This document shows, piece by piece, positions 1,718-41,769 of a stretch of 46,723 nt of DNA. The DNA is from Candidatus Woesearchaeota archaeon (GTDB lineage: Archaea > Nanobdellota > Nanobdellia > SCGC-AAA011-G17 > JAGVZF01), in assembly GCA_018302805.1 (NCBI GenBank), contig JAGVZD010000002.1, positions 1-46,723 on the forward strand, in the 5' to 3' direction. The notes under the pieces were generated by a model. It worked only from the letters and a program-made list of their open reading frames with translations, was not told where the DNA came from and made no database searches. Position 1 is the first letter of the stretch. Every line of letters begins with the position of its first letter. The position numbers and the translations under genes are program-made.

Positions 1718-1804
1718 GAGCCTGTAGCGCAGCTTGGATAGCGCGGCAGCCTCCTAATTTTGGAAGACAGCTGTAGGTCGTGGGTTCGAATCCCACCAGG
1801 CTCG
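1718..1804 (+). tRNA. tRNA-Arg(CCT) with 12-nt canonical intron (1757-1768)
   Basis: Acceptor GAGCCTG/CAGGCTC, anticodon stem GCAGC/GCTGT, T arm GTGGG-TTCGAAT-CCCAC. Confidence 0.9.
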
Positions 1805-1876
1805 CTATTGTAAAAATGAGTTGCAACAAATAATAATAAAATCTCCTTATAAATATTTATAGTAAAATTTAGTAGT

Positions 1877-5177: not shown

Positions 5178-6893
5178 CTATATCAATCCAGCTTTAATTT
5201 CTTTTAAGATATTTTTATAATAATACTTACCCCATTTCCTAATCTGGGTTTTATTTAAATGATCTAAATAATCTGCTATTTTTTGACCTGTTATAAATTC
5301 TGGAAGAACTACAAAATCTGCGCCATTCTCATACAAAACTTTAAGTTCAATTAAATCTTTTGTAGTTACAAAAATTAATCCATTTTTGTTAACTTTTCTA
5401 AATTCCCTAATGATTTCTAAATTATTTTCTAGATTATGGATTGTAGAAATTACATAATGTGGTTTTACTTTAAATAATTCCTCTATAAAATCTTGATCAG
5501 AAACATCACCAAATATGCAATCAATACCCTGTTTTTTCAAATTGGAAATCACATCAGGATTAAAGTCAACTGTCAGAAATTTCTTATTTGATTTATTCAA
5601 TGATTTAATAACATTATAACCTGTTCTGTGCCCACCTAATAAAATAATATCATATTTTTTATTCTCTAAAGAAACAATTTCTTCTTTTAATTTTTTTCTC
5701 TCAAAAATAGTTAGATATCTTGAGAATAATACATATAATTTGTCATTATATAATATCAAATATGTTGAAATTGTAATGGTAATTAAACCTACTAATGTTA
5801 TTAGTGTTGTTATTCTCTCGTTTAAATGATTAACCTTAAGACCAAGATTTACTAAAATGAGTGAGAACTCGCTAATTTGAACAATAGCTAAACTAATTAA
5901 GAAATTTGTTCTTTTTTTATAACCTATAAAGGCACCAATAACTAATAGTATTAACAATTTCCCAATTATGACAAATATTGATAAGATTAAAGCTGGAATT
6001 ATAACTGACTTTATTGAATTTACAGCCATACCTAGACCAAGATTTACGAAAAATATTACTATGAAAAAATCTCTTAATGGTTTTATTTTATTTAGTATAG
6101 TATAATTATAAGGGATTACAGTTAAGCTAACGCCTGCTAAGAATGCACCTATTTCGACACTTAAGCCTGCAATATAAGCTAGGGAAGCCAAAAGAAAACA
6201 CCAGGCAATACTTGCAATGAATAGTAATTCTGGAGAAGAATACATCAAGTTAAATATTCTTTTTAGGAAATATTTACTTGAGATTACAACAAAAATTATT
6301 AATGAAAGACCTTTGATGATGATGATTGTAGCTGATAATAAATTAAATGAACCATTTCCTAAACTTGTGACTAAAATTAAAGCTAATATTGCTACAAAAT
6401 CCTGAACTAATAATACACCTACTAAAATTTTCCCATATAATGTGTCTATGCTATTTTTATCAGACAATAGTTTTACTATGATAACAGTGCTGCTAAAAGT
6501 TATTGCTAAGCCAATATACAGTGATTCAACATTACTAAATCCAAGGGCTTTAGATATAAAATAACCAAAAAAGAATGTTATTATAATTTGGAGTAAACCT
6601 ATTATTAAAGATGATTTACCAGTTTTCTTCAATGTAGAGAAATTGAGACTTAAACCTATTAAGAAAAGAAGGAAAGCTATCCCTATTTCAGCAAATAAAT
6701 GTATAGTTTCAGAAGGTGTTGCTATTTTCAAAAATAATGGTCCGAGAATTATTCCAGTGAATATATATGCTAATATTGGGGGTTGTTTTAATACCTTGGC
6801 AATAATAGAAAGAATTGTTGCAATTAATAGTATTATACTTATATTTAAGAGAAGACTAGAACTAAATACTGATGTCATCTCTTCTATAACCAT
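5178..6893 (-). CDS. Kef/CPA2-type cation:proton antiporter with C-terminal RCK/TrkA-N domain
   Basis: Multiple TM helices, FSSTVII and LLVQD CPA2 motifs, QISEFS, C-terminal IFGDVSD/GADFVV. Confidence 0.9.
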   Translation of the reverse strand: MVIEEMTSVFSSSLLLNISIILLIATILSIIAKVLKQPPILAYIFTGIILGPLFLKIATPSETIHLFAEIGIAFLLFLIGLSLNFSTLKKTGKSSLIIGLLQIIITFFFGYFISKALGFSNVESLYIGLAITFSSTVIIVKLLSDKNSIDTLYGKILVGVLLVQDFVAILALILVTSLGNGSFNLLSATIIIIKGLSLIIFVVISSKYFLKRIFNLMYSSPELLFIASIAWCFLLASLAYIAGLSVEIGAFLAGVSLTVIPYNYTILNKIKPLRDFFIVIFFVNLGLGMAVNSIKSVIIPALILSIFVIIGKLLILLVIGAFIGYKKRTNFLISLAIVQISEFSLILVNLGLKVNHLNERITTLITLVGLITITISTYLILYNDKLYVLFSRYLTIFERKKLKEEIVSLENKKYDIILLGGHRTGYNVIKSLNKSNKKFLTVDFNPDVISNLKKQGIDCIFGDVSDQDFIEELFKVKPHYVISTIHNLENNLEIIREFRKVNKNGLIFVTTKDLIELKVLYENGADFVVLPEFITGQKIADYLDHLNKTQIRKWGKYYYKNILKEIKAGLI

Positions 6894-22768: not shown

Positions 22769-23735
22769 TTTTAACACTTATATAACTTATATTAATTGGA
22801 TGGGCTTTTTTAAATGGTCTAATTGCTTCAGAGAACCTTATTAATCTTTTATATGGCCCTGGTACAGATCCTCTAAGTAATAAATACTCATTTTTGATAT
22901 TGCCATAATGCTTGAACATTGATTTTGGTGTTATTTTTGAACTGTCTTTTTGAATGTCCAAAATAATATTATTAAAAATAGTTCTTGTGTGAAATCCCAT
23001 TTGTCCTTTCTGAGGAACTCTAAAAGATACTTTTGAAGGGGTCCATGGACCTAAGTTTGCTGGGGCTCTTCTTTTCTTTTCTGATTTGTGAGATTTAAGA
23101 TTTATTCCAAATCTTTTAACAGGACCTTGAAGGCCTTTTCCTTTGGTTATTGCATGAATATCAACAAATTGGCCTTGTTTGAAATAGTCGCTAACTTTTA
23201 ACTCTTTATCTAGCAAGGATTTTGCAAAATTTAATTTTTCCTGAACTTCGGATCCCCCAATATCAACTTCGAAGACCTCTGGCTTTTTCTTTTCTAAAGT
23301 TGTTAATTTGGGTTGAGTATAAATTAGAATTTTTATATCTTTGATATTACCTAGATTAATATCATCTATATTTTTATTATATTTTTTAGGTATTTTTAAT
23401 TTCCTAGATAATTCTTTGTCTAATTTCGAATTTAAGAAATCTGTGTGTACTTTTAATTGATTATCTTCATGCTTATAAAACCTAATTGCATAAACTTTAA
23501 TAGGAGGACATTCAATAATAGTAGCAGGAGTATAGATATTTTCTTCTTTAGTTGCTGAATGAGGATTTGAATCTTTTAAAAGTAAATGGGTCATGCCTAC
23601 TTTGTAACCACAAAATCCCATTAATTTAAGTTCATTAGTCTTTTTCCAAGCTCTAATTCGTGGATATATTCTACTAGCTCTCTTCCTCGGCCAGTATTGC
23701 AAACTTCCTGCTCTTGGTTTATGTGCTCTTGGCAT
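22758..23735 (-). CDS. rpl3: 50S ribosomal protein L3
   Basis: GSLQYWPRKRA, GYKVGMTH, GKGLQGPVKRFG. Confidence 0.97.
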   Translation of the reverse strand: MPRAHKPRAGSLQYWPRKRASRIYPRIRAWKKTNELKLMGFCGYKVGMTHLLLKDSNPHSATKEENIYTPATIIECPPIKVYAIRFYKHEDNQLKVHTDFLNSKLDKELSRKLKIPKKYNKNIDDINLGNIKDIKILIYTQPKLTTLEKKKPEVFEVDIGGSEVQEKLNFAKSLLDKELKVSDYFKQGQFVDIHAITKGKGLQGPVKRFGINLKSHKSEKKRRAPANLGPWTPSKVSFRVPQKGQMGFHTRTIFNNIILDIQKDSSKITPKSMFKHYGNIKNEYLLLRGSVPGPYKRLIRFSEAIRPFKKAHPINISYISVKNES

Positions 23736-23885
23736 TTTTTAATATTATTTTTTAATAGTCTAATAACTTGCAGAATAAGCGGCTTCTTATGTACAGTAGG
23801 GAATTTTAAAGAATTTGCTAGTATTTATAAAGGTTGTGGTAGAGATTTGAATAAATTGGGAATTGAGGCGATGACAATTTAAATT

Positions 23886-24374
23886 TTATCCGCCAGAATC
23901 ATCAGAAGAACTTCGCTCATATTGAGAACCTTCTGAAACTAATTGAATCTCTATATTTACATCAAAAGGTTTAGAAAGATCTTTCATAAGGATTATTAAT
24001 TCTTCAATATTTTCTCTGCCATTGGCTTCTAAAACCCATTTACTGTTAGAAACTGTATTTCTTGCTTGATTACTTATCCATAATGTTCCTAGATCAAAGG
24101 CATATTGCTTTTGTTTCCATTTAATTCCAAGAAAATTTTTTTGAATTGGATCCCTAGGTTTTAAGATAGTAATAGCATCAGGATCTGGTTCTTCTACTCT
24201 CCATCCACATGAATTCCCGATTATATAATTTTTACTCTTAAGATATTCTGCAATTTTATAGGCTGGAGTTTCATAATAAGATACCTTATTTTCTTTAATT
24301 TTTTGAGTTATTTGAGAATTATCTGAATATTGTCCTGAAGATTCAATCTTTCCTAAATAATCATCTATTGGCAT
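23886..24374 (-). CDS. hypothetical protein
   Basis: 162-aa ORF starting 3 nt after the upstream gene's stop; N-terminus MPIDDYL resembles the neighbour's MPIDQYF. Confidence 0.7.
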   Translation of the reverse strand: MPIDDYLGKIESSGQYSDNSQITQKIKENKVSYYETPAYKIAEYLKSKNYIIGNSCGWRVEEPDPDAITILKPRDPIQKNFLGIKWKQKQYAFDLGTLWISNQARNTVSNSKWVLEANGRENIEELIILMKDLSKPFDVNIEIQLVSEGSQYERSSSDDSGG

Positions 24375-24377
24375 TTT

Positions 24378-25094
24378 TTATGTTTTAATTTTTACACGTC
24401 GTACCCCGAGTCCAGGAGACCGGTACGTAGCACCCCTATTGCAGTCCAGACCAGCCCTACCTGAATTAGCGAAGAACACAGCGACAGAATTATTTATTGG
24501 AGCAAAATACCATAAATTTCCACTTTTGATATTACTTGGGGGCAATCCATGCCTTGTTAAAGTATCAATCCATTGTTCTAAATCTATTCCAGGATTTTTA
24601 TTGTCCGACAAGTAATCTTCTAATAGTATGAAATGTGCAGGTTGTAATTTGTTATTGAAAGTTCTATGATCATAATTTATTATTAATGATTTATCAGTTG
24701 GATTAACTTTAAAATCTGCATCTAACCATTCTCCTTGCCAAGGATCTTTTATTTCTAAAATATCATAAGCCATTTTGAGTAATATTGATTCGTCAATTCT
24801 TTGCCCATTTCCATCAAAACCTCTGCCAATTTTTAATAAGGATAAAAAATCTACATATTGTCTTATATTTAGCATAAATGAATTTTCACGATGCAATGCA
24901 TGATGAGCATTAAACCAGTTTAATCCAAAATGTGATTTTTCACAGGAGATTAATAAATCCCGATAAGAATATGATCCATGTGATTTACCTTCAAGAAAGA
25001 TATATCCTTTGTCATTTGCACTTTTGGAGGTGAATCTAATTTTATCAGAAGTTCGTACACCTTCTAGTTTATCGAAATATTGGTCAATTGGCAT
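24378..25094 (-). CDS. putative DGR-target-like protein (C-type-lectin-like fold, variable-region-like C-terminus)
   Basis: EW motif then C-terminal VAVFFANSGRAGLDCNRGATYRSPGLGVRR encoded by a locally GC-richer segment. Confidence 0.6.
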   Translation of the reverse strand: MPIDQYFDKLEGVRTSDKIRFTSKSANDKGYIFLEGKSHGSYSYRDLLISCEKSHFGLNWFNAHHALHRENSFMLNIRQYVDFLSLLKIGRGFDGNGQRIDESILLKMAYDILEIKDPWQGEWLDADFKVNPTDKSLIINYDHRTFNNKLQPAHFILLEDYLSDNKNPGIDLEQWIDTLTRHGLPPSNIKSGNLWYFAPINNSVAVFFANSGRAGLDCNRGATYRSPGLGVRRVKIKT

Positions 25095-25223
25095 AATTCT
25101 ACTATGGAAAAAGCCCTTTATAAATATTTCTAATTTTACTTTCTTTGTAGTAGTAAAAATTTATTAGAATTTAAAATTGCCCTTAAACTGATAGAATTTG
25201 ATTTGATTTTTTGTTAAAGAATT

Positions 25224-25883
25224 TTAAATATCCTGTGATTTTGTCTCCTGTTGTCTCTCTTTTAATTTTTTTTCTCTTTCTGGAGAATCATGCCACTTCC
25301 TGTATCTATCCCAAATTTCAGACCAAATATTATCAAAATATCTAGGAGAAACAATCGCTGCATCATTCCTCAATTTCTTAAGACTAACAACATGGGGATA
25401 TTTATTGTCAAACGAAAATAAATAACTATATGTTTTTTCTAAATCTAATTTACTTAAGAAATCAGTATAGCTCAATTCATCTTCTTTAAATCCACAATCC
25501 TCTATTCCAGTTATCTTTTCATAGATTTTATTATCGAGGGAACCTGATTCAATGAATTTCGATTGAATATTAGAAGGATTTTTACTCTTTTTTAAGTCAA
25601 TTTTATAATCAGATAAAGATTCAAGAAGTGTATTATAATCAGATGTGGGAATTAATCTTAAATTTGGGTAATCGTGGTTATCCTTAGCTCCTTTGGAGTA
25701 TAAATATGATTGAAACTTTTGAATTTCTGGTTCTGGAACATAAACTGTAAAAATGTCAATATTCTCTGTTGGTTTATTTAGGATTAAATCAAGACCAAAT
25801 CTACCTGTAGCAAACCAATGGTACTTAGAACTCTTTAATGTGTCTACAATATCTCCTTTCAAATAAAATTCTCTAATATCCAT
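25224..25883 (-). CDS. hypothetical protein, possibly AbiEi-like partner or degenerate nucleotidyltransferase
   Basis: WFATGRFGLDL...IDIFTVYV segment; 30 nt downstream of a nucleotidyltransferase gene on the same strand. Confidence 0.45.
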   Translation of the reverse strand: MDIREFYLKGDIVDTLKSSKYHWFATGRFGLDLILNKPTENIDIFTVYVPEPEIQKFQSYLYSKGAKDNHDYPNLRLIPTSDYNTLLESLSDYKIDLKKSKNPSNIQSKFIESGSLDNKIYEKITGIEDCGFKEDELSYTDFLSKLDLEKTYSYLFSFDNKYPHVVSLKKLRNDAAIVSPRYFDNIWSEIWDRYRKWHDSPEREKKLKERQQETKSQDI

Positions 25884-34056: not shown

Positions 34057-34518
34057 ATGAAAGGGATATTAAAAGGATCCTTAGCAGCAATTGTATTTGC
34101 TATCGGAGTTGAGGCAATTTCATGCAGTGAGGCAACAAGGCCTTTTGAACAAGGATTGGGCTGCACGCTGCAGGATACTACTTTGGTATCTGTAAATGAT
34201 CAAAGGTCACTTCGATTTGAAGCTGAAAGTAGCACCTATTATGTAAGGATTTTGCATGTAAGGCCAGAACCAGAGGATGTGCCCAACCCAAGTGCACATA
34301 TCGTTTCTATGTTGGTCAATAACTCAAGATACGTAAGTGGACTGTTGAGTAATGGTCAAGACATTGATAGGCTCTATTTAAGAGGAGAAACTACATCCAC
34401 CGAACCAACAGGTGGTGACGAAGCAATTCTAGACATTACGTACGCTAGGGGGCGCATTCCACCAAGTGAAGGTGCTGAAAGAGGAACTGTTGGTCTGAGA
34501 TTCATACGGTGTAGATAA
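34057..34518 (+). CDS. hypothetical secreted protein or lipoprotein
   Basis: AGGAGG RBS, signal-peptide-like N-terminus with Cys; GC-richer than neighbours. Confidence 0.7.
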   Translation: MKGILKGSLAAIVFAIGVEAISCSEATRPFEQGLGCTLQDTTLVSVNDQRSLRFEAESSTYYVRILHVRPEPEDVPNPSAHIVSMLVNNSRYVSGLLSNGQDIDRLYLRGETTSTEPTGGDEAILDITYARGRIPPSEGAERGTVGLRFIRCR

Positions 34519-41500: not shown

Positions 41501-41623
41501 TCTTTTCAAAAAAGTTAGATTCAAATATATTTATAAGTGTTGTCAAAGAACTAAATGCTGAATAAGTTAGATAAACAATAATTATGTTAAATATCAATTT
41601 TAAATCGGGACTAGGTTAAAATT

Positions 41624-41707
41624 GCGGCTTTAGTTCACCGGTAGAATCCGAGCTTCCCAATTCTTAGGAATTAGCTTGAGAAGTGGGTTCGATTCCCACA
41701 AGCCGCA
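41624..41707 (+). tRNA. tRNA-Gly(CCC) with 13-nt canonical intron (41660-41672)
   Basis: Acceptor GCGGCTT/AAGCCGC, anticodon stem CGAGC/GCTTG, BHB helix TTCC/GGAA. Confidence 0.92.
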
Positions 41708-41769
41708 TTCTACTGCATACATTTACAGTAAAAATCAAATTTAAATACTTTATCTACTTTATAATTTAA

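Follow-up and report, generated by a model that had tools for sequence, protein, structure and literature searches.

Diversity-generating retroelements (DGRs) whose variable proteins adopt a C-type lectin (CLec) fold were reportedly described in DPANN archaea and Nanoarchaeota by Paul and colleagues in 2015 and 2017, and the existence of DGRs with CLec-fold targets in DPANN archaea is already established. In the excerpted text of Handa et al. 2016 (PMC5006420), AvpA-like proteins are reported from Woesearchaeota genomes marked 'no DGR'. The gene analyzed here, from a Candidatus Woesearchaeota archaeon, adds to these systems a different, unannotated CLec target family and an orphan copy of the target; the family may already stand among the DPANN targets in the supplements of Wu 2018 or Roux 2021.

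The window, that is, the whole stretch of 46,723 nucleotides that was analyzed, corresponds to contig C54; the assembly comprises 1.03 Mb in 74 contigs, with a completeness of 89.5% and a GC content of 30.1% (this genome is labelled G000 in locus names). The features discussed below are collected in Table 1.

Table 1. Coordinates of the target gene, its variable end and related features; plain numbers are positions in the window
Feature	Location	Strand	Basis or remark
Target gene, 238 aa; product predicted to be soluble and to have a C-type lectin fold; belongs to a multi-copy family	24378..25094	-	ORF (ORF list of the window), homologues, AF2 model
Variable region (VR), 80 nt, GTCGCT to CTCGG, codons V204 to G230	24406..24485	-	GC, A, GC3, TR alignment
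IMH-like invariant 3' VR end CTCGGGGTACG	24400..24410	-	motif search
N-terminal leader MPIDQYFDKLEG, common to about 17-21 genes, in this genome only	25059..25094	-	pattern scan
Tandem gene, 162 aa, same leader, no GC-rich tail	23886..24374	-	starts 4 nt past the target-gene stop
Window copy	C54		tail GC 0.51
Sister copy	C28:1622-2398		tail GC 0.59
Sister copy	C9:4478-5227		tail GC 0.56
Sister copy	C47:12901-13629		tail GC 0.52
Extra A-rich TR segment	L018:1159-1176; also L020, L021, L023, L037		TR/VR comparison

A gene end of deviant composition

A sequence-only reading of the window had pointed to a GC-rich C-terminal end of the target gene. The peptide that it quoted maps exactly to V204-R233 (24485-24396), and the compositional shift is confirmed: the last ~90 nt contain 52% GC in a 30% GC genome and are, in addition, poor in adenine. 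The GC content is 0.52 at 24400-24499 compared to 0.24-0.33 in the flanking 100-nt segments, and the adenine content of the last 108 nt of the gene is 0.21 compared to 0.38 in the gene body. Genome-wide, a GC content of at least 50% is reached by 62 of the 41,085 segments of 100 nt (0.15%), which fall into 35 regions including the tail of the target gene. The Gly, Arg and Ala content of the encoded peptide does not alone explain the shift in GC because GC3 is raised as well (0.47 in the tail and 0.18 in the body). The anomaly in the composition of the tail is genuine and lies far beyond what chance would produce.

Of the 35 GC-rich regions, 7 contain a tRNA called by ARAGORN. Judging by eye, we take the regions other than the target-gene tail to be mostly tRNA-like, along with one that resembles a 5S rRNA, Gly-rich linkers and three sister tails of the target gene. 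Several of these islands look like tRNAs missed by ARAGORN, and two ARAGORN calls in the window (1718-1805 and 41623-41708) are tRNAs with four-letter anticodons ('tRNA-???') that probably represent intron-containing archaeal tRNAs. Islands of at least 50% GC that match no tRNA, Gly-rich linker or VR are located at 34401-34500 of the window, at C48:5701-5875 and 6251-6350, and at C4:176-275.

Directly downstream of the target gene, on the same strand, are ORFs that, from their sequences, presumably encode L3/L4-like ribosomal proteins. The sequence of the 238-aa protein contains no signal peptide or hydrophobic segment. Its 55 homologues include none with a functional name, and precomputed Pfam domains are present only on one weak match. 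Neither the protein nor its 162-aa neighbor matches a Pfam or NCBIfam family above the cut-off, and the search of Pfam with the 238-aa protein at E<=1 yields a single, chance-level match to a family other than FGE-sulfatase.

Predicted fold of the target protein

The AF2 model of the 238-aa protein, built from 44 homologues, has a pLDDT of 89.8 and a pTM of 0.86, is uncertain only at residues 1-30 and consists of a single globular domain that follows a short N-terminal helix. The best match to this model among the 48,161 chains compared exhaustively using VIA-align is TaqVP (5vf4; Z 9.5, 186 residues aligned, rmsd 4.2), the DGR variable protein of Thermus aquaticus. Next come C-type lectin domains with Z values of 7-8.8; AvpA of Nanoarchaeota (5ioo) scores 7.9, TvpA 7.4, and Mtd and the FGE paralogue 1y4j 7.1 each. 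Because Z values of 7-8 are common best scores, what counts is solely the top match and the agreement among the entries of the list. In a Foldseek search of the PDB, the top matches are all C-type lectin domains, with E values from 5e-3 to 5e-2, all of them weaker than 1e-3, and the fold assignment leans on VIA-align given that the Foldseek E values are 5e-3 and weaker. The profile of the 44 homologues matches no PDB sequence at E<=1, AvpA included. According to the model, the 238-aa protein folds as a C-type lectin and its C-terminal strands are made up by the VR; the sequence-only reading had anticipated such a fold.

An expanded paralogue family with a shared leader

The family of the target protein is unusually expanded in this genome: the profile of the 44 homologues has 16 matches here, compared to a maximum of 9, followed by 7 and 6, in the 150 other sampled genomes of the order. 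Homologues of the family are present in 52 of the 150 sampled genomes of the order. The paralogues are mostly ~240 aa long and 35-51% identical to the window protein, and most copies are arranged in tandem arrays, with a gene start 1-12 nt past the preceding stop. Many share the C-terminus V-A-x-F...C...P...LGVRxxKIK.

Only four family-type copies in the genome have GC-rich, A-poor tails (Table 1). The tail of the copy on contig C2 is intermediate, with a GC content of 0.46, and those of the remaining copies range from 0.24 to 0.42. The GC3 values of the four GC-rich tails are 0.47-0.63, compared to 0.10-0.33 in 16 of the 17 other listed ORFs, the exception being an ORF on C66 from outside the family. 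The four tails can be aligned with a single gap, a 1-nt deletion in the C28 copy, and contain invariant blocks between codons that vary at positions 1 and 2 and keep a pyrimidine at position 3. The same type of VR is also found on a body that is unrelated to the main family, in C9:4478-5227 (L003/L016) and L012:823-1617. In these proteins, only the last ~40 aa match the main family, so that they may represent another CLec subfamily or have acquired the VR module by transfer.

A further common trait is the N-terminal leader. The genome contains 21 ORFs that start with MP[IVL][DE].[YF], typically MPIDDYLGKLEG. The DNA pattern for MPID.Y[LF].K was located at 17 sites of G000, namely, 25059-25094 and 24339-24374 on the minus strand of the window and 15 others, and is found neither in 30 relatives, the same-genus genome included, nor in the reversed control. 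The AF2 model renders residues 3-10 of the leader as a helix of low confidence. The leader could serve for docking, for export or as a recombination handle. It is also found on unrelated bodies, including those of the 162-aa neighbor and of the ORFs at C57:4787, C9:5230 and C66:15470; the body of the 162-aa neighbor, with the leader removed, has no BLASTP match to the lectin family, and only 4 homologues of this neighbor were identified. Other genomes appear to possess shared leaders of their own: the N-termini of the two G031 targets, which lie at contig ends, are identical, and tandem genes of G012 have a different shared N-terminus.

Complete DGR cassettes in relatives

Comparison of the tail with 40 relatives using blastn produced matches in three genomes, from other families of the same order. 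No DNA match to the window VR was detected by blastn in same-genus and same-family genomes, which also encode no close orthologue of the target, only proteins with 28-40% identity, so that the VR cannot be compared between orthologues.

In G031 (L010/L018), the VR of a homologous target at 626-692 is followed by a 67-nt template repeat (TR) at 1092-1158 and by a reverse transcriptase (RT) gene that starts at 1218; the encoded RT matches RVT_1 with an E value of 2.7e-22 and scores below the NCBIfam cut-off for group II introns. G026 (L011/L020) carries a similar cassette that includes two VRs, a TR and an RT. In the four VR/TR pairs of these two genomes, changes are observed at 12/17, 13/17, 11/20 and 12/20 of the adenine sites but only at 0/50, 0/50, 1/47 and 0/47 of the non-adenine sites, respectively. 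For the six cassettes G031, G026, L021, L023, L036 and L037, two of which come from a metagenome pattern scan, the mismatches that fall on TR adenines amount to 11/11, 11/11, 15/17, 12/12, 15/15 and 11/12. The cassettes of the relatives are textbook DGRs that share one TR sequence family. Of the 150 other sampled genomes of the order, 67 encode RTs of the DGR type; in the same family, five of the six genomes do so, and the same-genus genome encodes two. Among the 52 genomes that possess the target family, 35 have an RT match and 17 do not.

The TRs of five of the six cassettes contain an extra A-rich segment of 18-25 nt between ...TCG AAA and the ...CTCGG end. The segment is missing from every VR, with adenine changes present on both of its flanks, and its potential to form a hairpin is no better than that of shuffled sequences (z of -1.1, -1.2 and +0.2). 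According to the excerpted text of Wu et al. 2018 (PMC5758913), TR and VR differ in length in about 7% of DGRs. Two additional observations concern the surroundings of VR-like sequences. At L037:2450-3862, a 470-aa protein whose P-loop match to nSTAND3 is weak (E 7e-4, short of the cut-off) is encoded between the TR/RT and the target. At L051:2986-3108, on a 21.9-kb viral contig from IMG/VR with 30% GC, an encoded protein ends in a VR-like tail of the type described here, and no RT was found within 3 kb.

The variable region compared to foreign templates

All TRs with which the tails of this genome were compared are heterologous. The window VR is 70-75% identical to the TRs of relatives by blastn; the tail can be aligned at the DNA level to non-coding TRs from other families of the order, but the gene body cannot. 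The nearest TR, that of L024/L037 on a metagenome contig, carries the GCT-ACG-TAC block that is otherwise private to the window VR. Relative to this TR, the window VR is changed at 8 of the 18 adenine sites versus 6 of the 48 non-adenine sites (Fisher p=0.008). When the four tails of the genome are compared with each other, all 17 columns that correspond to adenines of the G031 TR vary, in contrast to 15 of the 50 other columns, and the respective values for the G026 TR are 20/20 and 12/47 (p = 2e-7 and 4e-9).

Regularly spaced, pyrimidine-ending codons in the tail had been interpreted as derivatives of AAC/AAT template codons. Against the nearest TR, TTC is opposite AAC, GAC and AAT are each opposite AAT, three separate GGT codons are opposite GAC, AAC and GAT, TAC is opposite an unchanged TAC, and TCT is opposite AAA; the template adenines fall in about 13 VR codons. 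The genome contains exactly four occurrences of CTCGGGGTACG at <=1 mismatch, one in each GC-rich tail. The same end is found in the VRs of four of the six complete cassettes, where the TRs read CTCGGAATAAC.

The non-adenine changes separate the tails from one another. Relative to the L024/L037 TR, they number 1/48 in the C28 tail, 2/48 in C47 and 6/48 in C9; in the C2 copy, they number 19/48, and its tail, judging by this divergence, is fully decayed. The 6/48 changes of the window VR compare with 0-2 non-adenine differences in the six cognate VR/TR pairs. Three of the six are third-position transitions in NNY codons, a pattern expected from ordinary drift, and one metagenome TR carries the C that the window VR has at column 42. 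Several differences other than A-to-N, up to 11 in one target, are described as frequent in CPR/DPANN-set DGRs in the excerpted text of Wu et al. 2018 (PMC5758913), so that the 6/48 changes could also stem from an active, sloppy element of this kind or from an unseen TR variant.

Search for the retroelement and for signs of rewriting

The 1.03 Mb assembly contains no match to PF00078 (RVT_1); tblastn with two DGR RTs gave a best E value of 1.8, and the order-wide search for RT proteins found none in G000. A blastn search of the assembly with the VR and two foreign TRs detected only the four VR tails, and the motif of the TR end does not occur in any TR-like context in the assembly. The sequence-only reading had noted that neither RT nor TR was visible in the window; this is borne out, and the assembly-wide searches likewise turned up neither. 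Because the assembly is 89.5% complete and consists of 74 contigs, and DGR repeats break assemblies, absence of these elements from the organism is unproven. That reading had staked itself on a TR or RT in the genome or its close relatives: the genome yielded neither, but they are present in five of the six relatives of the same family. The L024/L037 cassette was considered as the missing piece of the genome and rejected: the contig is only 65-73% identical to the genome, over short stretches, and hence belongs to another archaeon. The same holds for the metagenome scan as a whole, in which TRs were found only on contigs that are 65-73% identical to the genome, i.e. those of other organisms.

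The Logan contigs of four sequencing runs show no differences over the VR, although such contigs drop rare variants; several of the four runs may be source samples, and the cover of the stretch is partial in runs X10 and X12. A sister VR, C28:1622-1740 (L002/L013), has a 1-nt deletion that shifts the frame, with the loss of the LGVRR strand, and the original C-terminus, ...LGVRRANIKT followed by a stop, is still readable downstream in the family frame. Two metagenome loci, L027 and L034, share the deletion; in one of them, an adjacent segment is 6% divergent. The persistence of this lesion argues against rewriting given that any rewriting would erase it.

Origin and present state of the variable region

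With regard to its origin, we consider the tail very probably to be a DGR-type VR. The broader interpretation that we favor, with considerably more reserve because it includes the present state, is that of a binding-surface segment which was written by a DGR and is now a frozen relic. Under this scenario, the gene would encode a CLec-fold protein without a signal peptide in which the strands and the loop of V204-G230 make up the binding surface, their coding sequence having once been DGR-written; binding of a ligand via the VR surface would be expected from the analogy to the variable proteins of DGRs elsewhere. In relatives, the TR would be copied into cDNA by the RT and miscopied solely at adenines, and the cDNA would overwrite the VR as far as the invariant CTCGG/GGGTACG end, a mechanism that we infer from the measured TR/VR pattern combined with the established biology of DGRs. 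The writer, that is, RT plus TR, being absent from the assembly, the window copy would no longer be rewritten, and the frozen VR would evolve as ordinary coding sequence, with one fixed specificity among about 16-20 paralogues. Four paralogues would keep fresh-looking VRs, and the other tails would either have decayed to the genome composition or never have been written.

Two explanations do without a DGR. The GC-rich tail could be a conserved structural motif, that is, a selected Gly/Arg/Ala/Pro-rich sequence of lectin paralogues, given that V-A-x-F...C...P...LGVR is conserved across the 44 aligned homologues and that paralogues without GC-rich tails keep the peptide motif too. This very observation, however, indicates that the motif does not require GC: tails of paralogues with the same motif have GC contents of 0.24-0.42 and GC3 of 0.10-0.33 (the non-family C66 excepted). 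Furthermore, the tail, unlike the gene body, aligns in DNA to non-coding TRs of other families, and the variability is concentrated at TR-adenine columns, all of which makes selection on the peptide a very unlikely explanation. Even less probable, to the point of being barely worth entertaining, is a structured RNA gene (e.g. a tRNA fragment or an sRNA) embedded in the gene as a GC-rich stretch. Many of the other 34 GC islands do look tRNA-like by eye, and one 5S-rRNA-like, but neither an Rfam match at E<=1 nor a tRNA is located at positions 23500-25500, and the stretch is in frame and encodes a peptide that is conserved across homologues.

A more serious competitor is an active remote target, in which a DGR on an unassembled or unbinned contig, or on a separate replicon, rewrites the VR as well as its sisters in trans. 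In favor of this, the completeness of the MAG is 89.5%, RTs occur in 67 of the other 150 genomes sampled from the order and five of the six from the family, neither the ORF nor the IMH-like end is damaged, and the tail has a high GC3; moreover, the excerpted text of Wu et al. 2018 (PMC5758913) documents remote targets for cellular DGRs and describes multiple non-adenine differences as common in the CPR/DPANN set. Against continued activity, the 1.03 Mb assembly yielded not even a fragment of an RT or TR, the TRs from the metagenome scan belong to other organisms (contigs 65-73% identical), the VR is identical in contigs of the four runs, the frameshifted sister VR is unchanged in two further contigs, and the C28 and C47 tails agree better with the nearest TR than the window VR does (1/48 and 2/48 versus 6/48). 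On balance, we regard present activity as unlikely, if well within consideration. The proposal of the sequence-only reading that the gene is a trans-diversified target is accordingly split: the DGR-type VR on a CLec-fold protein of a DPANN-type archaeon stands, but present diversification in trans looks doubtful, with no RT or TR in the 89.5%-complete assembly, a VR identical in contigs of four runs and 6/48 non-adenine changes. A bolder version, which we deem rather improbable, envisages a receptor repertoire of ~16-20 paralogues united by the leader, with 4-5 dispersed VRs rewritten in trans by a non-chromosomal DGR (e.g. that of a virus, a plasmid or a partner organism), together with a lineage TR containing an A-rich segment of 18-25 nt that is never transferred to the VR. 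If this were true, the never-transferred segment would entail template jumping or else processing of the RNA ahead of reverse transcription.

Implications and comparison with known systems

The interpretation of the tail as a frozen, DGR-written VR leaves the accepted view of how DGRs work unchanged. What it adds is a CLec family with no Pfam or NCBIfam match above the cut-off and no sequence match in the PDB, which joins the DGR targets of DPANN archaea, as well as a case where DGR-written sequence is revealed, even without the retroelement, solely by an anomaly of composition, in that a gene of an AT-rich genome has an end rich in GC and poor in A. One genome here combines several states of the tail, namely, fresh-looking, drifting, frameshifted and AT-rich (decayed or never written), and this coexistence could serve to time the loss of a DGR.

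The locus resembles the DGRs of DPANN archaea and Nanoarchaeota in that it belongs to a small-genome groundwater archaeon and comprises a CLec-fold target whose short VR is C-terminal, with template codons of the AAY type and a last strand that is invariant and specified by the IMH region; unlike these DGRs, it has no RT or TR in the assembly of its own genome. TaqVP (5vf4) is the best structural match of the 48,161 chains, but the sequence identity is only 12%, and TaqVP is bacterial, with a chain of 381 residues compared to 238. The likeness to AvpA (5ioo) is purely structural (Z 7.9), with no sequence homology (the profile matches 0 PDB chains at E<=1), and the VR of the window is at the very C-terminus, whereas AvpA extends 46 residues past the VR according to the excerpted text of PMC5006420. 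The protein also differs from CLec targets of the FGE-sulfatase type in lacking a Pfam FGE-sulfatase match, although the FGE paralogue 1y4j is structurally similar (Z 7.1).

As in the remote targets described in the excerpted text of PMC5758913, e.g. those of Treponema denticola, VR genes are far from an RT, and several target paralogues are present per genome. Unlike the window VR, those of the Treponema denticola type have, in the same excerpt, a cognate TR in the same genome and A-only differences; here, no TR was found in the own genome, and 6/48 non-adenine sites differ from the nearest foreign TR. The cassettes of relatives in the order have a TR and an RT located 0.4-3 kb from the target, in contrast to the genome analyzed here, which has neither; what the two share is the TR/VR family GTCGC...TTC...CTCGG, the target family, with 28-63% amino acid identity, and the IMH-like end.
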